NCBI GenBank assembly: GCA_049970495.1
Contig: JBMFMV010000001.1
Coordinates: 2,604 to 66,603, forward strand
Length of the DNA stretch: 64,000 nt
DNA from: a bacterium
GTDB taxonomy: Bacteria; DUMJ01
Reading direction: 5' to 3'
Shown here in pieces: positions 1,687 through 9,800 of the stretch. The translations under genes and the position numbers were made by a program. Numbering within the stretch: position 1 is the stretch's first letter; the number at the start of each line of letters is the position of its first letter. The notes below the pieces were generated by a model, which saw only the letters and a list, made by a program, of their open reading frames with translations, was not told the DNA's origin and searched no databases.

Positions 1687-3387
1687 TTACTTTGTAGGCT
1701 TGAGATTCAATGTGACAAACAAGAAGTGACCCCACCAAGTAAATGGAACAGTATACATATTGTCTGTTGTAGGCCAGCCCTTCCAATATGTCTGATTCCA
1801 TGCCATAGTATATATGGTCTGTATAACTGGTGCTGCGGGTAAGACCTTAAGATATTCTTCCAACGCCTGATGATAAGTACTTAGCGCTACTTTAGAATCT
1901 GGCGCCATATTAGCTAACTTGCCTACAAGTTTATCTAAAGTTGGGTCCTTAAGTCTTACCCAGTTACCCCTCACAGCTCTCTGGCCTATTGGCATTATTC
2001 TATCACTAGTGAGATTTCGGTAGAGTTCAAACGGATCAGCACCTGCTCCGCATAACCAATGGGAAGTTACTTGGAATTTACCAGTGCTAGTATATTCATC
2101 AAAAACAGGCCCTTCTAGATGTTTCACAGTAATTGTTACACCTATCTTAGCTGCTTCCTGTGCTACATCCTGAGCTATTAGATACTCATATCCAGTAGTT
2201 ACTACGGGAGTTATTATTTCAAGTTCTAAAGGCTTTTCATCAGGTCCAATTCTCTTACCACCGGGACCCATCTTATATCCAACCTCATCTAGCAACTTAG
2301 CTGCTTTTTGCGGATCAAAAGTAAGATCATATTTTTCTAGTACCGTCTTATTAGCAAATTGCTCCATATATTTGTATGCTGCCCAAGGGTATTTAGCAGG
2401 AGTAGTCTCAGGTTTCCAAAGTGTTTTAGCTATCTTCTCTCTATTAATAAGATAAGAAATAGCCCATCTTACCTTAGGATCAGCAGTTGGTCCACTTGTA
2501 CAGTTAAACCATATTCCACGTGGACAAGGGTCTAAGAACGGAGTAATTATGATATTAGGATTTCTCTTCATAGCTACTTCCATCTGTAGATAATCAATAT
2601 TATGAGCATGGTCTATCACATTATTTATAAAATCCTGCAAATCAGCATCTGGTGGAGGAGATGTTCTATATACCACGTATTTAGGACCAGGGAAATATCC
2701 ATACTTCTTCCCCCAATAATCGTCACGACGTTCCCAGATAAACATCTTAAGGTCAGGAATAACCTGCTTTAGCTTGTAAGGAGCGGTCGTTACGGGCGGA
2801 TTATTTTTAAATGTCAGTGGATCCTTACCTTCCCAGATATGTTTTGGAACTATGGGAGTAGCCGTACAAATGAAATTAACAAATCTATAATGGAATCTAG
2901 GTAAGGGCGTCTTAAGATCAAAAACAACGGTATACCGATCTTTAGCCCTTACATCTGCCACTTCCTGTTTCCAAACTTCGCCTCCAAACTCTGGCCTAGA
3001 CATAATCATCTTTACGGTAAAGACAACATCATCGGCTGTAAAAGGCTTACCATCGCTCCAAGTTACTCCACGTCTTAGACTTATAGTACAAGTTTTAAAA
3101 TTATTAGTGTAGCTATACTTTGTAGCTAACCAAGGGACTATCTTTCCAGTTGCAAGGTTACAGTACCATAGATACTCTGTCCCAATCTGCCAGAAACCAG
3201 CAGCGAATTCAACACCGTTAGGCGTAAAATAGTTAAAACTATCAAAAACACGGAATGTAGCAGTATCTTCCATAAATAATGTTTCTTCTCTCGGAACGGG
3301 TAAAGACTGAGAATAAATAGGTAAAGAGAAACTAAAAACCAACAAAATAGCCAAAACATAACTAACTATACTTCTATTAAATCTCAT
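1687..3387 (-). CDS. ABC transporter substrate-binding protein, family 5 (peptide/oligosaccharide/nickel type), secreted or lipoprotein
   Basis: 566-aa ORF with an N-terminal signal peptide (MRFNRSIVSYVLAILLVFSFSLPIYS) and the length and composition of SBP_bac_5. It is the first gene of the permease operon. Confidence 0.85.
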   Translation of the reverse strand: MRFNRSIVSYVLAILLVFSFSLPIYSQSLPVPREETLFMEDTATFRVFDSFNYFTPNGVEFAAGFWQIGTEYLWYCNLATGKIVPWLATKYSYTNNFKTCTISLRRGVTWSDGKPFTADDVVFTVKMIMSRPEFGGEVWKQEVADVRAKDRYTVVFDLKTPLPRFHYRFVNFICTATPIVPKHIWEGKDPLTFKNNPPVTTAPYKLKQVIPDLKMFIWERRDDYWGKKYGYFPGPKYVVYRTSPPPDADLQDFINNVIDHAHNIDYLQMEVAMKRNPNIIITPFLDPCPRGIWFNCTSGPTADPKVRWAISYLINREKIAKTLWKPETTPAKYPWAAYKYMEQFANKTVLEKYDLTFDPQKAAKLLDEVGYKMGPGGKRIGPDEKPLELEIITPVVTTGYEYLIAQDVAQEAAKIGVTITVKHLEGPVFDEYTSTGKFQVTSHWLCGAGADPFELYRNLTSDRIMPIGQRAVRGNWVRLKDPTLDKLVGKLANMAPDSKVALSTYHQALEEYLKVLPAAPVIQTIYTMAWNQTYWKGWPTTDNMYTVPFTWWGHFLFVTLNLKPTK

Positions 3388-3431
3388 TTACTACACCTCC
3401 TTCTACTATTGTAGGTAGATTTTCTCCAAAC

Positions 3432-5122
3432 TCTAAAACCTCTTGTAGTCTCACTTTTAGCTATAGCCTTACTACGTTTCACCCTCACAGCCCAACCTCT
3501 TGATTTTTACCCCTTTGCCTCCTTATCCTAGAATTAAAACTCTAGGACAAGGAGGCGATAACTATGCTAAAATCACAACACTGGATCCCGCATTCATTAT
3601 ACCAGAAAAATCTCCTCAATTCACTAAAATCACTTCCTGACTCTTACAGCGATAGGATTGAAGAATACTCCGACCTTGTAGATAAATTGTTCTACTTTAA
3701 CTTGGATAAAGCTTACCAAATCTTATCCCCTTACTACTCCAATACCGGTAGACCTGCTAAATATCAAGCTGAAATACTTCGCTCCCTCATAGCTATGGTA
3801 CATCTTAGAATCTATAGTATCACTAATTGGGTTAAAAAACTCAAGAATGATAAAATCCTTGCTATCATCTGTGGCTTTGACCCTAACGATGTCCCAGGTG
3901 TCGGTACTTTCTATGACTTCTTGAATAGATTCTAGCTATCTAACAGCGAACCTAACAAGTTAAAAATCCCTCATAGTAAGCCTAAAAAACCTTCTAATCA
4001 ACAGGAGAAACTTCCTCCTAAACATCCCAATGTCGTTAAAGATATCGTAGATAGAATCATTAGCAGTAGAGATGTATCTCTTGGCTCTCAGAGAGTTATT
4101 TCCTTACTCTTCTCTGAGCTTGCAGTTAAGCCTTCTATCAAGATGGGACTAATTGAATCTAACGCTAAGATATCTAGCGACGGTGCACCTGTTGAATCTC
4201 CCTCTAATCCCTATGGCAAAAAGACCTGTGACTGTTCTAAAAAAGGTATCAGACACTGTAAGTGTAAGAGACGTTTCTCCGATCCTTTAGCCAGATGGGG
4301 TTGGGATAGCTACCATAAAAGGTACTTCTTTGGTTATACTCTCTATGCTATTAGCACTAATAATGGCCGTTATGACCTACCCTTACACTTTATACTGCCT
4401 CACCTCTATAGACACGATAGCGTTAGTGCTGTAATAGCTCTATCCCAACTAAAAACTATCCACCCAGAGCAGAATTTCAGCTATTTTATTGCTGATTCCG
4501 CTCACGATAATACCGCTACCTATAGACTCTGTAGGTTCTATGGATTAAATCCTATTATAGAGCTGAATCCTAAGAATACCAGCAAAGAGAAAGTAGCCAG
4601 TTTTGATGATTATGGAAGACCTATCTGCCCTCTTGGCTTACCAATGGTTAATTGGGGATATAACAGGGACCGTTGTAGAATAAAGTGGAGATGTCCAATT
4701 CTAGCAAGTAAGAAGACTAAAAAGCAACTTGGTGAATGCCCTATCAGAGAGCTCTGTTCTGGTTCTAGTTATGGTAGAGTTATATATACTTATCCTGAGA
4801 CTAATCTTAGATTGTTTACCAATCCACCAAGAGGGTCTAAGTTATGGGAGGATATCTATAGTAAGTATCGGTCTTCGGCAGAAAGATGCATGAAGCGTAT
4901 ATTAATAGACTATAAGTTAGAATCCGCTAGGGTCTATAGTAGGAAACAGTGGATATGGAGGATAGCTTTTATATGTATTAACATCCATCTGGACGCTTGG
5001 ATAGACTCTGCTAGACCTAACATAGTTGGAAAACTAGCTAGTTGGGCGCAAAAAGCAGCTTAGACTTAAGATTATCGAAAGCTAAATATAAAGTATAAGA
5101 GAGACTACAAGAAAGGTCTCTT
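3432..5122 (+). mobile_element. Insertion sequence of the IS5/IS1182 superfamily, about 1.7 kb, with imperfect terminal inverted repeats. The element boundaries are approximate.
   Basis: A 12-nt perfect inverted match is present: tcttgtagtctc at 3441-3452 and gagactacaaga at 5101-5112. The match extends to about 20-22 bp with an ACC flank and one 2-nt indel. The repeats bracket a single transposase reading frame. Confidence 0.55.
3564..5063 (+). pseudogene. DDE transposase of the IS5/IS1182-like superfamily. The ~499-codon frame is interrupted by one in-frame TAG at 3933-3935, giving ORFs 3564-3935 and 4143-5063 in the same frame.
   Basis: Both ORFs are in the same frame (3564 and 4143 are both divisible by 3). 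The 207 nt between them translates without any stop (LSNSEPNKLKIPHSKPKK...AVKPSIKMG). The N-terminus carries a GRPAKYQAEILRSLIAMVHL...LAIICGF IS5/IS1182-type domain. The C-terminus has FIADSAHDN and a SAERC..KR motif. Confidence 0.7.
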
Positions 5123-5294
5123 AGTAGCTAATTGTTCTTTTTACTCCAATATTCTACTTTCAAGGTGCGTTCCCCTTCTTTATAGGCTCCTATAGCCTGG
5201 GGATACTATCTTTTTACACTAACTTTATCTATATTTTACCCCCCCACACACATTTGTCAAGACGGACGGGAAGTTTCTGATAAGCTACTCACTC

Positions 5295-6641
5295 TCAAGT
5301 ATCTGCCTCTATATCTTCATATTTCAAGTTATTTGAATCTAAAAATACTCCATCTATTCTAAAAACAGGTTCTTCGGATGTATTACTATCTCGCCTGTAG
5401 ATAATATTTCTCATCTTAACTCTATTCGCACCTTTTAGATAAATCCAGGGTATATGATATAAATAATCAGAAATAGGAATAACCTCACTAGGTCTTATAT
5501 CTATATATTTCCCAAACAAAGCCCTATATTTACTATATCTAAGGTTAAGATTAACATCTTCAATTTTTATATCTTCTATGTTACATCCTTCCCCTATAAC
5601 TATAATTCCATTCTCAGAAACTGCACTGAAATTTTTTACTGATACATCTCTAATAACGTTACCTGAATTAGGGGCAGAGATAACTAAGGGTTCTCCCTTT
5701 CCCCACCAAGTCCCAGCAAAAATCTTGGTCTCTGCTAAAACTTTATCTATCTTAACAGATCTAACCCAACCATTTTTACCGTCTGCAAATATGCCTATCC
5801 CTCGGTTGGAGTCTTTAATGATAAGATTACTTGCTATTACATCCCTAATCTTACTGTCTAAGTTACCAATCCTAAGCCCTGCCGACCTTGTCCTAAGAAT
5901 ACAATTCGAGATAATAATACGTTCACTAGGTATATCCCAGTTAGTAATACCTGTAATAGCTATACAATCATCCCCGCAGGATATATTAGAGTTGGTAATG
6001 ATTACATCTTTACAGGAACATAAATGAATCCCGTCAGAATTAGGTATCCTCAGATTATTTACTATAGAGATGTTCTCTATCCTAATGTTCTCACTAGAAT
6101 GAAAAGAGACTGTCCAACATGGAGAATTTATAATCCTTACATCTTTTACACTCACATTCCTACAATTAAGGAAGAAAATTGGTTGATTGGGTCTTTCTAA
6201 AGTTTTACATTCTACTTCTTGAATTTGGTCTAAAGTAAGTAAATTCAATTCCTCAAAATTATTATGAACCCTAGTAAAATCCATAAAAGAATCTCCCGAG
6301 AGATCGATAGTCCCATTACCTACAATATTTACATTCTCTGCATCCTTCACATAGATTAAAGAAGTGACCTTCTCCCACTTATTATCAATAGACTTAATCT
6401 TTTCATAATCGATCTTTTCATAATCGCCTATATTACTCGAAGCTTTTAATACCCCTCCATTCTCAATAGCTAAGGTTACATTTGACTTAAGAAAGATAGT
6501 CCCGGATAGGTATATCCCTTGAGGGATAATAACCGTTCCACCTAAATTTCGAGCACAATCATCAACTGCTTTCTGAATAACCGAGGTATTAAGAGTAATA
6601 CCGTCACCTACGGCTCCGTAATCTAATATATTTACTTTCAT
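5295..6641 (-). CDS. Glycoside hydrolase family 28 (exo-polygalacturonase-like, beta-helix fold). There is no signal peptide, so it is probably cytoplasmic.
   Basis: GH28 signature segments are present: NSDGIHLCSCKDV, SCGDDCIAITG, and RIGN. The N-terminus is MKVNILDYGAVGDG. Confidence 0.85.
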   Translation of the reverse strand: MKVNILDYGAVGDGITLNTSVIQKAVDDCARNLGGTVIIPQGIYLSGTIFLKSNVTLAIENGGVLKASSNIGDYEKIDYEKIKSIDNKWEKVTSLIYVKDAENVNIVGNGTIDLSGDSFMDFTRVHNNFEELNLLTLDQIQEVECKTLERPNQPIFFLNCRNVSVKDVRIINSPCWTVSFHSSENIRIENISIVNNLRIPNSDGIHLCSCKDVIITNSNISCGDDCIAITGITNWDIPSERIIISNCILRTRSAGLRIGNLDSKIRDVIASNLIIKDSNRGIGIFADGKNGWVRSVKIDKVLAETKIFAGTWWGKGEPLVISAPNSGNVIRDVSVKNFSAVSENGIIVIGEGCNIEDIKIEDVNLNLRYSKYRALFGKYIDIRPSEVIPISDYLYHIPWIYLKGANRVKMRNIIYRRDSNTSEEPVFRIDGVFLDSNNLKYEDIEADT

Positions 6642-6669
6642 AAGAACCTCCTCCTAATTATTAAGATAA

Positions 6670-8886
6670 TTATCCCTCTGAAATAATTCTATCCACCACT
6701 AACTGGCGAAATTCTGGGGAGAGACTACTAAAGTATGCACTAAAGCCAGTAACTCTAACTATCAAATCGGGGTATTTGCTTGGATCTTTATGTGCCTCTA
6801 GGATTTTATCCTTATCTATAATGTTTATATTAACCATAGTTCCGCCTAGATCAAAGTGTACCTTTATAAGATTAGCAATATTTTCTACTGCTTCCTTTTC
6901 GTCTTCAATAAGGGGATCAAGTTCGATCTGCATAGGGGCAGTATTGCCGTACCCAGGCTGAACACTTGCAATAGCTATGGCCATCGCAGTAGCTGCACCA
7001 TCATTCCTAAAACCCGGATCGGGATTAGCACCGTGAGATATAGGGTCACCAGCATACCTTCCATTAGGGGTAGCCCCTAAATTTCTACCCATAGGGATAG
7101 TATTTGCCCAGGAGAATAATCCTGGGATCATATTATACCCGTTAGGGGTAGGCTTCTCTTTAACCATCTTGGTAAACGTCTTAGAGATTCTAACAGCATA
7201 CTCATCGGAAATAGAACTACCGCTACCATATCTAGGGGTATTCCTCATTATCAATCTGATTCTTTCGCCATTTGGTCCAGCCCAGTTATTATCAAGATAG
7301 TACATCAGTTCCTGCCATGTTATCCTTCCCTCTTTTTCAACCCTCTCTTCAATCGCTCCAAAAGAATCAGCAACTGTAGCCAAACCTGCACCATCTACGC
7401 ACATATTATAAAATTCTACCCCTCCATGTGAGGCATCTAGACCTTTCTCTATGGGACCATGAGAACATAGGTCTAAGACTAGCTCCGGGAAAACTCTATG
7501 CATATACTCTAGGTGAAAATCCAACCCTTTAGCTATAGTATCTATGGCTATCTTCAAATGTTTGGTAAATCTATTCCACAACTCTTCAGTACTTGGATTA
7601 CATCCAGACTCCTGCATCATCTCACGGAGAGCAACATCAAATATTGTAGCAAAATTGATCTTTACACAATCCATTATTGTGTATTCTCTTCCCGGTATGC
7701 CATACCAATGACATCCTGCATATGCCCTCTCTCTAGCTATCTCTAAAGGATATCCATTTCTTGCAAACCCATTTACTACGCTATCCGCACCTAGAAACTT
7801 GGGAATTCCCATTTTATCATCAAGTAAAATCTCTACCCCCCTGTATAAAAGACCTCTATCTAATCCATCCCCAACACAGACACCTATATTAGTAGGGATC
7901 CTTAGTCTATGCGCTGCCTCTAAGATTAGATAAGAAAGAGGATTTGTTACGTCTCTACCCTCTCTATCATAACCCCCAAGTTGTATATATGCAGTATCTC
8001 TCAGTAAAAGACATACTATATGGAATATTGCCTCTTCATCGGTTAAGATTCCGGCATCCCTATCCCTCTTATAAAAAGGATAGAGTATTACATCGAGCCT
8101 TCCTAGAGAACCGCTACCATTATACATCCTAGCAGTTATTAAATACCAGAGTATCCATTGACATGCCTCTCTGAAAGTCCTAGGTGGTTCATTTACTAGT
8201 CTTTCATTCATCTTTGCTATCTCTAAAAGGTTCTTCTTTAATTCTGGATCTTCCTCATCCTGAGCCATAGACTTTGCCGTATTAGCAGTCCTATAAATCC
8301 AATCCTGAATCCCTAAAACTACAGATTCTAAACCATCATAAAATTCAGAGGATTCTGGATTATTCATCTTTCTATAGTATCTGATCTTATCTAAAATGCC
8401 TTTCCATCCTAATCTAAGTCCTATCTCCATATCCTGACAGAAATGCTGTGCTGCGCCAATACCTGTAACTAGCTGATATAATTTCTGCTCCCTATGAAGG
8501 TAGGAATAATCAAAATCTGGATTCCAATGAGGATTTCTATAGGACATAAAGTTGACCATATAAGCCCCAGCAAGAGAACTTATTGGGTCTATATATACAG
8601 GGTGCACCTCTAAAAGTCTCCTAAAGTTTTCACCACAAGATTTAGGCCCAAAGAATCCTCCACTCGGATGATTGGGAATAAATTTAAAGCTTTTTAATAG
8701 AACATCTGTTATGGGCATTCCAGAAGAACTAATCGTTTTTACTATTTCTCTTTCTTCCTGAGGAGGGAGGATCAGTCCCCAGTCATCATGGTCCATAAAA
8801 CCAACAATTTCCTGCTTTTCTCTTGTATGCTCCAATTTCTTAGCACGAAGCAGACCTATTCTCTCTTGATAAGTTAAAATAGCCAT
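6670..8886 (-). CDS. Glycyl radical enzyme of the PFL2/glycerol-dehydratase-like family, substrate unknown
   Basis: 738 aa. The C-terminal glycyl-radical motif VRVTGFSAYF is present. A single candidate active-site Cys lies in GCHWYGIPG, with no PFL-type CC pair. A GRE activase gene lies immediately downstream. Confidence 0.8.
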   Translation of the reverse strand: MAILTYQERIGLLRAKKLEHTREKQEIVGFMDHDDWGLILPPQEEREIVKTISSSGMPITDVLLKSFKFIPNHPSGGFFGPKSCGENFRRLLEVHPVYIDPISSLAGAYMVNFMSYRNPHWNPDFDYSYLHREQKLYQLVTGIGAAQHFCQDMEIGLRLGWKGILDKIRYYRKMNNPESSEFYDGLESVVLGIQDWIYRTANTAKSMAQDEEDPELKKNLLEIAKMNERLVNEPPRTFREACQWILWYLITARMYNGSGSLGRLDVILYPFYKRDRDAGILTDEEAIFHIVCLLLRDTAYIQLGGYDREGRDVTNPLSYLILEAAHRLRIPTNIGVCVGDGLDRGLLYRGVEILLDDKMGIPKFLGADSVVNGFARNGYPLEIARERAYAGCHWYGIPGREYTIMDCVKINFATIFDVALREMMQESGCNPSTEELWNRFTKHLKIAIDTIAKGLDFHLEYMHRVFPELVLDLCSHGPIEKGLDASHGGVEFYNMCVDGAGLATVADSFGAIEERVEKEGRITWQELMYYLDNNWAGPNGERIRLIMRNTPRYGSGSSISDEYAVRISKTFTKMVKEKPTPNGYNMIPGLFSWANTIPMGRNLGATPNGRYAGDPISHGANPDPGFRNDGAATAMAIAIASVQPGYGNTAPMQIELDPLIEDEKEAVENIANLIKVHFDLGGTMVNINIIDKDKILEAHKDPSKYPDLIVRVTGFSAYFSSLSPEFRQLVVDRIISEG

Positions 8887-8897
8887 ATCTATTCCTC

Positions 8898-9800
8898 CTA
8901 ATAGATTTTTTCTCTATCGATATATCTTCCCATCAAATCTTTAATCTTCTCTATATCCTCCTTTTTTGGAGGCTCTAGCTCTAAAATTCCTCTTCTATTA
9001 TTGAATAACCATGGCTTACTTAAGCCTAATTTGTGATAGGGTAAGAGCTTTACTCTTCTTACAGATTTAAGTTTGGCTATAAAATTGGCAACTGCTACTA
9101 TATTCTCTCTAGAATCATTATATCCAGGTATAATAGGGACCCTTATCTCTATCCATTTCTCTGCTCTATCTAGTCTGTAAAGATTTTCTAGTATTATCTC
9201 ATTTGGAACCCCTGTGAGCTTTTTATGTTCTTCTGAGTTCATATGTTTAATGTCGTATAAAAAGATGTCAACAAAAGGTAACAGGTCTTTAAGCTTATCC
9301 CAAGAGACAAAACCAGACGTGTCTAACGCTGTAGAGATACCATTCTCTTTACAAGACTTTAGTAGATCTAGACAAAAATCGAATTGAAAAGTTGGTTCTC
9401 CTCCGGAAAGTGTAACTCCTCCGGATTGTTTGTAAAAAGGGATATCTTTGATAACTTCATCTAAGACCTCCTCTAAATCATAAATTTTACCCTGTAATAC
9501 AATGGCTCTAGCCGGACAGGCATCTACACACTTAAAACAAAATCGACAGAACTTTTCATCATACTTCTTCCCCTTTAAATTATCATTCTGCAAAGCTCCA
9601 GTAGGACAGACTAGGACACAGGAATTACATCCTATACACTTGTGCCTATAGAACGCCAATTCAATCTTAGGGCTTATAGATTCAGGATTATGACACCAGA
9701 GACACCTTAAAGGGCAACCTTTAAAGAAGACAGTAGTTCTAATTCCTGGTCCATCGTGTAGAGAAAATCTCTGTATATCAAATATAATACCACTACTCAT
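8898..9800 (-). CDS. Glycyl-radical enzyme activating protein (radical SAM enzyme with an extra ferredoxin-like domain)
   Basis: CxxxCxxC radical-SAM motif in GCPLRCLWCHNPE. Two additional 4Fe-4S motifs are present: CIGCNSCVLVCP and CRFCFKCVDACP. The GGE SAM-binding segment is GGEPTFQ. Confidence 0.85.
   Translation of the reverse strand: MSSGIIFDIQRFSLHDGPGIRTTVFFKGCPLRCLWCHNPESISPKIELAFYRHKCIGCNSCVLVCPTGALQNDNLKGKKYDEKFCRFCFKCVDACPARAIVLQGKIYDLEEVLDEVIKDIPFYKQSGGVTLSGGEPTFQFDFCLDLLKSCKENGISTALDTSGFVSWDKLKDLLPFVDIFLYDIKHMNSEEHKKLTGVPNEIILENLYRLDRAEKWIEIRVPIIPGYNDSRENIVAVANFIAKLKSVRRVKLLPYHKLGLSKPWLFNNRRGILELEPPKKEDIEKIKDLMGRYIDREKIY

Follow-up and report, generated by a model that had tools for sequence, protein, structure and literature searches.

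Genes and features at the locus

The window analysed here is a 64,000-nucleotide stretch (64 kb) of a contig from a metagenome-assembled genome (MAG). It contains an insertion sequence (IS) between two minus-strand genes, a GH28 gene and the SBP_bac_5 gene of a transporter operon (Table 1). The insertion site is the 33-nt spacer between the GH28 stop codon (5295) and the SBP_bac_5 Shine-Dalgarno sequence (3394-3400), whose plus-strand reading is CACCTCC. The left end of the element lies 14 nt upstream of this Shine-Dalgarno sequence. The start of the SBP gene at 3387 agrees with the initial annotation, which also placed the element in the promoter region of an opp/dpp-like operon. The element does adjoin the transporter operon, but a 33-nt spacer between two genes on the same strand does not bear out a promoter region.

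Table 1. Features of the insertion sequence and its target site (window coordinates).
Feature	Position	Strand	Basis or remark
Host target: SBP_bac_5 start codon (3385-3387), Shine-Dalgarno sequence GGAGGTG (3394-3400) and 14-nt spacer	3385..3414	-	
Complete IS, 1874 bp	3415..5288	+	homology limits versus L001, L002, L004, L009 and L019
Left terminal inverted repeat, GTAGATTTTCTCCAAACTC	3415..3433	+	
Internal (subterminal) inverted repeat, left arm	3441..3459	+	conserved in all close copies
Promoter-like site TTTACC-17-TAGAAT	3506..3534	+	consensus match, 9/12; putative function
Leader hairpin: anti-Shine-Dalgarno GCCTCCTT (3517-3524) versus transposase Shine-Dalgarno AAGGAGGC (3549-3556)	3515..3558	+	
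Transposase codons 1-123, all-helical N-terminal domain	3564..3932	+	ORF/Pfam; AlphaFold model of P0001
In-frame TAG, codon 124, for conserved Trp (G>A at 3934)	3933..3935	+	copy comparison
Transposase codons 125-499: linker, RNase-H-like DDE core, eight invariant cysteines	3936..5063	+	
Non-coding right tail, conserved, with poly-C tract	5064..5270	+	
Internal inverted repeat, right arm	5094..5112	+	176 nt inside true right end
Minus-strand promoter-like site in right tail	5260-5233	-	
Right terminal inverted repeat, reverse complement GTAGCTTATCAGAAACTT	5271..5288	+	

Ends of the element and target duplications

Copies in unrelated contexts align with the window from 3415 to 5288. The ends initially proposed, at 3432 and 5122, are therefore wrong. 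The terminal repeats of ~20 bp proposed with them are a real inverted pair, with arms of 19 nt that are 89% complementary, but they are internal and fail to mark the ends in the multi-copy alignment; the true ends lie beyond this pair, by 26 nt on the left and 176 nt on the right. The best inverted-repeat score between leader and tail is 14, versus 7.8 ± 1.1 for shuffled sequences, and was reached in one of 1000 shuffles. More distant family members carry a different internal repeat pair at the same position. The terminal repeats themselves are ~18 nt long and begin with GTAG. The family consensus of the left one is GTAGATTYTCGGAAACTC, and the window copy and L004 have a TCTCC variant in common. 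Two findings in relatives support these termini: target duplications of 5-8 bp lie on either side of them, and there is a matching empty site. The comparisons show that the transposase acts on the GTAG-initiated terminal repeats and that the second, internal pair is conserved as well. For annotation, they supply the ends of a family whose ends were previously not known.

Exact duplications of 5-8 bp flank 16 of the 43 copies that have both ends. All three copies on finished plasmids have them (ATATA, ATTTT and TGAAGAAT), as do all three copies in the complete genome of Metallumcola ferriviriculae (GTATA, GTGTCA and TAGAC). The Clostridium estertheticum plasmid pCEST-001A and four other plasmids carry the site empty and uninterrupted, with ATATA present once. 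Comparison thus shows that transposition creates target duplications of 5-8 bp. No duplication flanks the window copy (TTGTAG versus TCACTC), also when an alternative left end at 3411 is used, so that a rearrangement, an adjacent deletion or an assembly chimera may have replaced one of its original flanks. Nothing in the window matches the sequences that flank the KM4338-32 copies.

An amber codon in the transposase gene

As initially annotated, the ORFs at 3564-3935 and 4143-5063 lie in one frame, the 207 nt between them are free of stop codons (p = 0.009 for 69 random codons of this base composition), and the frame is broken by the TAG at 3933-3935 alone. The full frame (3564-5063) comprises 499 codons with no further stop and no frameshift, and its natural terminator (5061-5063) is likewise TAG. 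The NCBI annotation in the MAG record covers 4143-5063 alone, as a 306-aa ‘transposase’ (P0005). Reading the sequence ahead of this downstream 306-codon ORF revealed no Shine-Dalgarno sequence of its own. In the window copy, the 123-residue N-terminal helical domain would be the only part made efficiently.

Codon 124 is TGG in 80 of 81 distinct related copies, TGT in one and TAG in none; the closest copies, L004 (~97% nucleotide identity), L001 and L002, all have TGG. At the protein level, Trp aligns with the TAG position in 14 of 15 homologues, and Trp124 is at least 90% conserved among 112 proteins. A single G>A transition at 3934, changing TGG to TAG at this near-invariant residue, would have created the stop codon. 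The invariant acidic and cysteine residues are all kept in the window copy, and the private changes of its lineage (10 synonymous to 14 non-synonymous) match those of intact copies. Different disruptions in other copies had been named beforehand as the sign of ordinary decay. The lesion is private to the window copy and hits a conserved residue, and 12 of the 75 evaluable relatives carry unrelated lesions of their own, namely internal deletions, frameshifts and stops. Of the two explanations offered in the initial annotation, a very recent nonsense inactivation is supported by the TGG in 80 of 81 relatives and by the otherwise open frame, whereas regulated readthrough or a suppressor tRNA finds no support. 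The copy comparison indicates that the amber codon stems from a recent knockout (TGG>TAG) and does not reflect recoding.

Reading of the TAG as sense, by programmed readthrough, an amber-suppressor tRNA or pyrrolysine, would yield a low level of regulated full-length transposase. Some genes of pyrrolysine-using organisms do have in-frame TAG codons. The window copy resembles genes with a decoded UAG in having a TAG within an otherwise intact, fully open frame; it differs from them in that its TAG is private to one copy and stands for a conserved TGG, all 81 other distinct copies having TGG or TGT, and in that its neighbours stop at TAG. In the window, TAG terminates 11 of the 54 other large ORFs, with the next genes beginning right after, and is therefore neither rare nor avoided. 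ARAGORN found tRNAs Ser-tga and Ala-ggc in the 64-kb window and no others, hence none with a CUA anticodon. The sequence around and downstream of the TAG is the same as in the TGG-bearing copies, indicating that no dedicated readthrough signal has evolved. Near-cognate readthrough of UAG, moreover, would not give back the conserved Trp. We regard sense decoding as scarcely credible.

With a MAG as the source, the A at 3934 could also be a consensus or sequencing error, a collapsed metagenome repeat or a minority allele. Chimeric flank combinations do occur in related metagenome contigs (L011 and L013 versus L009 and L012), and the missing target duplication at the window copy points the same way. 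However, consensus substitution errors are rare, and the contig, 109,424 bp long, runs through the element, which argues for few identical copies. Premature stops are also common in IS copies, so that there is nothing to explain away, and an artefact seems improbable.

In other IS families, truncated transposase derivatives act as trans inhibitors or regulators. The 123-residue domain could likewise have been kept for inhibiting or regulating other copies in trans. Two observations favour this: in the model of P0001, the stop coincides exactly with the boundary between the all-helical N-terminal domain and a flexible linker, and upstream of the gene the promoter-like site, the Shine-Dalgarno sequence and the hairpin are all preserved. 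A stop at this codon is found in no other copy, however, so there is no sign of selection, and the 64-kb window holds no second copy of the element. A functional truncation is therefore very unlikely. As a recent knockout, the amber codon carries little weight: it shows that one IS copy is dead and offers nothing in favour of recoding. With both ends intact, the element could still be mobilised by an intact transposase acting in trans.

Relationships of the transposase

The protein matches the Pfam family DDE_Tnp_1 (PF01609; 1.1e-7, 32.2 bits versus a cut-off of 23) and, weakly, DUF772 (PF05598; 19.2 bits, below the cut-off of 23.1); for the homologues P0001-P0003 both are recorded without qualification. 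The best NCBIfam match, NF033551 (IS1182), covers the catalytic half only (E = 6.3e-16), and its 58.3 bits compare with a cut-off of 270 bits, so the protein is not an IS1182 member by that model. The initial description as a ~499-aa transposase of the IS5/IS1182 type holds for a 499-codon DDE transposase, but the family label is approximate only. Asp206, Asp311/Asp315 and Glu440 are invariant in 112 sequences and kept in the window copy; the DDE triad is probably drawn from these acidic residues.

A structure model was made of P0001, which is 80% identical to the window protein and has the same numbering. The model is confident (pLDDT 92). Its best matches among solved folds are the piggyBac and Tn5 transposases (6x67 and 1mm8), both weak (TM 0.30-0.35, E at least 1e-3, 11% identity). 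The likeness lies in an RNase-H-like DDE core with inserted domains. A sequence profile search of solved structures returned nothing relevant, and no solved relative is detectable by sequence.

IS1182 is the nearest named relative of the element’s family. IS1182 elements in ISfinder are ~1.3-1.95 kb long with short terminal inverted repeats, and the 1874 bp and ~18-nt repeats of the element fit these limits. The two have in common a DDE_Tnp_1 domain with a DUF772-like N-terminus and, as in IS1272, one long transposase ORF of ~500 aa in an element of ~1.9 kb with terminal repeats of 16-19 nt. The family described here differs in its second, internal conserved repeat pair and its long non-coding tail. 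It also makes 5-8-bp duplications and inserts by Shine-Dalgarno motifs, whereas IS1272 of staphylococci (1,934 bp, 16-bp repeats) makes no target duplication and takes the place of palindromic targets (PMC5678879). Premature stops are known from some IS1272 copies too (PMC5678879).

More than 1,300 homologues of the family are detectable, and its cultured hosts include Clostridium, Thermoanaerobacterium, Carboxydocella and Metallumcola. In current annotation its members are labelled ‘hypothetical protein’ or as a generic transposase.

Insertion next to Shine-Dalgarno sequences

Across the family, a CCTCC-type motif (C[CT]TCC or CCCCC) ends 10-13 nt outside the left end at 44 of 57 independent left junctions, versus 0.55 expected (P ~5e-77), and the spacing is exactly 11 nt at 27 of them. 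Cytosine occupies positions -16, -15, -13 and -12 in 37-48 of the 57. The motif was found at none of 52 right junctions in either orientation. It is the complement of the Shine-Dalgarno sequence of the host gene: the complement of a start codon follows just past the motif at 38 junctions, annotated CDS starts agree with the pattern in L100-L103, and the transposase gene is oriented away from the host gene. The gap between the motif and the duplicated target is constant at 6-7 nt although the length of the duplication varies. We considered whether the motif could be part of the element and rejected this, as the duplications lie between motif and terminus, the host genes start just beyond the motif, and the empty site has it.

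These regularities show an orientation-specific insertion that places the left end ~11 nt from a CCTCC-type motif, with a gap of 6-7 nt from the motif to the duplicated target. The target DNA beside the cut site may be read directly by the transposition complex. Fixed spacing and polarity, both seen in aligned junctions, suggest that the targeting is mechanistic, not selected. Whether this DDE IS family uses Shine-Dalgarno-motif DNA as an orientation-specific landing signal, in the order CCTCC, 6-7 nt, duplicated target of 5-8 bp and left end, is in our judgement an even question. On that reading, this widespread family would settle between the ribosome-binding site of a gene and the DNA upstream of it.

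The same distribution could reflect survival: insertions may occur anywhere and be tolerated only just upstream of ribosome-binding sites, for instance through outward transcription from the element. Intergenic insertions are generally less harmful, and a -35-like TTTAGA in the left end lies 18 nt from a TACAAT in the flank. No outward promoter is conserved family-wide, however, and gaps between convergent genes, an example of neutral sites, are unused. Tolerance would also leave unexplained the fixed spacing (11 nt in 27 and 10-13 nt in 44 of 57), the absolute polarity (0 of 52 right ends) and a motif-to-target gap that holds at 6-7 nt while the duplication length varies. We consider survival an unlikely explanation.

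Our reading is that 3415-5288 is one copy of an unnamed DDE IS family, that the G>A change at 3934 inactivated its transposase, and that the family lands by complements of Shine-Dalgarno sequences; we put its probability at roughly 0.85. From the junction comparisons, the window copy is seen as a dead member at a Shine-Dalgarno-adjacent site, and its placement, 14 nt upstream of the SBP_bac_5 Shine-Dalgarno sequence, as a consequence of the family-wide behaviour.

Tn7 is site- and orientation-specific at attTn7. The family resembles it in that both distance and polarity relative to a recognised gene-adjacent sequence are fixed at insertion, and coding sequence is spared. It differs in being a single-ORF IS that encodes no separate target-selector protein, and in its motif of 5-7 bp, which occurs upstream of most genes and would offer thousands of potential sites compared with one for Tn7. 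A literature search, whose reach did not extend to the main IS review, brought up no earlier account of Shine-Dalgarno targeting by any IS. If the targeting is true, genes would be cut off from their promoters or upstream cistrons with the coding sequence spared. The family would then modify gene expression and operon structure systematically among anaerobic Firmicutes and related lineages, and would also be a compact, single-protein case of a DDE transposase that chooses its targets with polarity, guided by a short motif. In the culturable C. estertheticum, strains that differ in whether the site is filled occur naturally, among them CF008 (filled) and CEST001 (empty), where the downstream gene encodes a methyltransferase; the targeting is thus open to direct test.

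The leader hairpin and the right tail

The leader can fold into a hairpin that pairs the transposase Shine-Dalgarno sequence with an upstream complement (-27.2 kcal/mol, z = -7.6). The hairpin is conserved in seven copies of the close subfamily, with no covariation or compensatory changes. Among 54 distinct elements, nearly all pair three quarters or more of the Shine-Dalgarno bases with a C-rich stretch, and 16 pair every one of them. An Rfam search of 3300-5400 gave sub-threshold microRNA-precursor matches over the hairpin, which we judged spurious.

Both promoter assignments, in the plus-strand leader and in the minus-strand tail, are weak consensus matches. The near-consensus tail site was considered as a family-wide read-through promoter for the host gene and rejected in that role, because some members of the close subfamily and all distant members lack it. 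The -10 box of the leader site falls within the left arm of the hairpin. The element’s own promoter would thus start transcription within the hairpin, so that this transcript escapes it, and only read-in transcripts would be silenced.

In IS10 and IS50, as described in the IS4-family literature, a fold-back protects the transposase ribosome-binding site. The leader hairpin may block translation from read-in transcripts in the same manner. The likeness lies in the pairing of the transposase Shine-Dalgarno sequence with an upstream complement and in the candidate promoter inside the hairpin. The two differ in that there is no sequence relationship between them and that the stem predicted here is conserved but not covarying in the close subfamily.

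A recent nonsense mutation in the transposase gene

Translation of the insertion sequence gives a single 500-codon transposase frame with one internal stop, a TAG at codon 124 (coordinates in the table). The initial annotation had described two same-frame ORFs split by one TAG only, and this is exact: the 207 nt between them contain no stop, and the probability that 69 random codons stay open is 0.009 at the base composition of the window. The product matches DDE_Tnp_1 in Pfam over the cut-off (E = 1.1e-7), with a weak match to DUF772. A search of ~5.8 billion proteins returned 1,343 homologues, among them uninterrupted proteins of 498-499 residues with 76-80% identity. An identical 306-residue C-terminal ORF was also recovered, labelled 'MAG: transposase [bacterium]' by NCBI, on a 109,424-bp contig.

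The TAG aligns with the Trp of an FYDFLNRFW motif; 14 of 15 homologues have Trp here, and this position is at least 90% conserved in 112 family members. In the DNA alignment, TGG takes its place in the closest copy (L004, from MAG KM4338-32, 96.8% identical over 729 nt) and also in L001 (JGI metagenome, intact) and L002 (MAG-58). The comparison of copies proposed in the initial annotation found a sense codon throughout: of the distinct copies at all loci fetched, 80 carry TGG and one carries TGT at this codon, and not one carries TAG. A private G>A transition therefore accounts for the lesion.

Beyond codon 124, the frame contains no other stop and no frameshift, and the residues invariant in the subfamily (D206, D311, D315, E440 and eight cysteines) are kept. 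The private changes of the window lineage (10 synonymous, 14 non-synonymous) have proportions like those of intact copies (10:15, 7:12 and 18:17). No trace of prolonged neutral drift is therefore seen, in keeping with the recent knockout suggested earlier. Other lesions, including internal deletions, frameshifts and different stops, are found in 12 of 75 evaluable family copies; the initial annotation had named such unrelated disruptions as the mark of ordinary decay. The sequence comparisons confirm the split by an amber codon and indicate an ordinary cause: one copy was recently knocked out by a nonsense mutation, and nothing supports recoding.

Positions of features in the window
Feature	Position	Strand	Remark
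SBP_bac_5 start codon	3385-3387	minus	
CACCTCC	3394-3400		complement of SBP_bac_5 Shine-Dalgarno; 14 nt from element left end
Left flank	3409-3414		TTGTAG
Insertion sequence	3415-5288		GTAGATTTTC... to ...GATAAGCTAC
Internal repeat pair	3441-3459 and 5094-5112		
Leader hairpin	3515-3558		44 nt
Transposase frame	3564-5063		500 codons
N-terminal ORF	3564-3935		
Internal TAG	3933-3935		codon 124; G>A at 3934
C-terminal ORF	4143-5063		
First cysteine cluster	4227-4265		codons 222-234
His-Leu-Tyr	4401-4409		codons 280-282
Second cysteine cluster	4626-4757		codons 355-398
Transposase terminator	5061-5063		TAG
Sigma-70-like site	5233-5260	minus	TTGACA-16-TAAAAT
Right flank	5289-5294		TCACTC
GH28, glycyl-radical enzyme and activase genes	5295-9800	minus	

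Regulated readthrough or a suppressor tRNA had been considered an equal alternative, in which the TAG would be decoded as sense. Its absence from other copies speaks against this, and TAG is a normal stop in the window: the 54 other large ORFs end in TAA (24), TGA (19) or TAG (11), the transposase frame itself terminates with TAG, and at several TAG-ended genes the next ORF start overlaps or lies within a few bases. The ARAGORN scan of the 64-kb window gave two tRNAs, tRNA-Ser(tga) and tRNA-Ala(ggc), and nothing there points to a suppressor. No distinctive readthrough signal follows the TAG: downstream of it, the amber copy and the TGG-bearing copies do not differ.

Two further observations concern sequence differences between copies. 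Codons 280-282 encode His-Leu-Tyr in the window versus Gln-Ala/Gly-Asn in almost all relatives; His-Leu-Tyr recurs in P0007, a homologue encoded in another MAG, a hint that copies have exchanged sequence. In the close subfamily, internal-deletion derivatives (L046, L049, L054, L055, L082, L099, L007, L008 and L030) reuse breakpoints at element positions 894/895, 1077, 1188, 129/308 and 625, suggesting either that deletion recurs at favoured sites or that a non-autonomous lineage is spreading.

Predicted effect on the protein

The AlphaFold model of P0001, a homologue 80% identical to the window protein in a gapless alignment, is confident (pLDDT 92, pTM 0.90). It consists of an all-helical N-terminal domain (residues 1-124), a lower-confidence linker (residues 125-156) and an RNase-H-like core. 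The best matches among solved structures are the piggyBac and Tn5 transposases, both weak, and a profile search of solved structures detected no relatives by sequence. The amber codon thus cuts right after the presumed DNA-binding domain. No Shine-Dalgarno sequence precedes the downstream ATG at 4143, so that synthesis of the catalytic part is unlikely. The N-terminal fragment could conceivably be regulatory, but the other copies, none of which has a stop at that position, give this no support. Eight cysteines (C222, C224, C232, C234, C355, C377 and the C392/C398 region) are invariant in 112 family proteins. This pattern points to two putative zinc-binding insertions within the catalytic domain, with a possible role in recognising DNA or the target.

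Element ends and target duplications

Homology with copies in unrelated contexts defines the element ends. The termini form an imperfect repeat of ~18 nt with the family consensus GTAGATTYTCGGAAACTC. The repeats that the initial annotation took as ends are real and above chance, but they are internal, and by this alignment its proposed boundaries are wrong. A two-tier arrangement, with terminal repeats and a second internal pair, is also found in members with only 37-46% protein identity, whose leaders are 150-280 nt and tails 100-220 nt long.

In relatives, 5-8-bp target duplications flank these termini. Duplications are perfect for the copies in Clostridium estertheticum pCF008-A (ATATA), Thermoanaerobacterium saccharolyticum pMU3262 (ATTTT) and Carboxydocella pCCELLA01 (TGAAGAAT); the chromosome of Metallumcola ferriviriculae has three identical copies, likewise with perfect duplications (GTATA, GTGTCA and TAGAC). 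Five other C. estertheticum plasmids have the empty site with a single ATATA. Exact duplications of 5-8 bp are present in 16 of 43 metagenomic copies with both ends; several contigs are clearly chimeras of different copies. In finished genomes, every intact relative has a duplication. The window copy has none (TTGTAG versus TCACTC), and one flank may not be original: rearrangement, a deletion next to the element or a chimeric assembly could each account for this. At the left junction GTAG is repeated (GTAG/GTAG), which could make the left end ambiguous by 4 nt.

Insertion next to Shine-Dalgarno sequences

The element had been placed in the promoter region of an opp/dpp-like operon whose binding-protein gene starts at 3387. 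It does adjoin the SBP_bac_5 start, but it occupies a 33-nt spacer between two co-directional genes, its right end 6 nt from the GH28 stop codon. The genes upstream encode a GH28 glycoside hydrolase, a PFL-like glycyl-radical enzyme containing a Gly_radical domain, and the radical-SAM activase of that enzyme. They are co-oriented with the Opp/Dpp-type ABC transporter genes downstream; all may belong to one sugar-acid utilisation cluster split by the insertion.

Because this arrangement recurred in other copies, every distinct junction was collected (57 independent left junctions, from loci L001-L111 and the window, and 52 right junctions). In 44 of the 57 left junctions (0.55 expected by chance; binomial P ~5e-77), C[CT]TCC or CCCCC, the complement of a host Shine-Dalgarno sequence, ends 10-13 nt outside the element; none of the 52 right junctions has it in either orientation. 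C occupies positions -16, -15, -13 and -12 in 37-48 of the 57, and the modal spacing is 11 nt. A start-codon complement lies just past the motif in 38 left junctions, where annotated plasmids record a CDS start. The motif is present in the close subfamily (12/18) and in distant members (32/39). Clean duplications and the empty site in finished genomes confirm the signature; there the motif lies 6-7 nt from the duplicated target whatever the duplication length. Survival of harmless insertions could be imagined as the cause, but the fixed spacing, together with the absolute polarity, favours direct recognition of the target. The position beside the transporter gene thus appears not to be accidental and to reflect a strong, polar family preference for sites ~11 nt upstream of Shine-Dalgarno sequences. 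No insertion sequence with such targeting is described in the literature searched, whose coverage was incomplete and excluded ISfinder. This preference of an uncharacterised family is the part worth follow-up.

The two closest orthologues of the window SBP_bac_5 gene (90% and 81% amino acid identity) likewise have an insertion of this family in the corresponding position. L111 (1-101) has a full-type left end 10 nt from the Shine-Dalgarno sequence, and L110 (4670-4985) a ~305-nt miniature derivative, recognisable by its ends alone, 14 nt away. The common site may reflect either a hot spot or one old insertion that these loci share.

Family assignment

The IS5/IS1182-type label was partly right: IS1182 is the best NCBIfam model, but the score of 58 bits is below the cut-off of 270, and the match covers the catalytic half only. 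Characterised IS1182 members such as IS1272 generate no target duplications and replace palindromic targets (PMC5678879), in contrast to the 5-8-bp duplications and Shine-Dalgarno-adjacent sites here. Public labels are 'hypothetical protein' or 'Transposase DDE domain-containing protein'. We therefore treat the element as belonging to an unnamed family near IS1182, not as an IS1182 member.

Leader hairpin and promoter-like sites

The leader contains a predicted hairpin (-27.2 kcal/mol, z = -7.6) in which GCCUCCUU pairs with the transposase Shine-Dalgarno sequence AAGGAGGC. The stem is kept in seven close copies, with no compensatory changes, and minimum-free-energy folds of 54 distinct leaders predict, with few exceptions, that most or all of the Shine-Dalgarno sequence pairs with a C-rich stretch. 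The -10 box of a weak promoter-like site falls within the left arm. By analogy with IS10 and IS50, the hairpin would silence translation of read-in transcripts, whereas a transcript from the element's own promoter would start too late to include the anti-Shine-Dalgarno arm.

The conserved right tail carries a near-consensus sigma-70-like site, antisense to the transposase and oriented like the flanking host genes. A poly-C tract in the spacer of this site differs in length between copies, so that sigma-70-like spacing occurs in some copies only.
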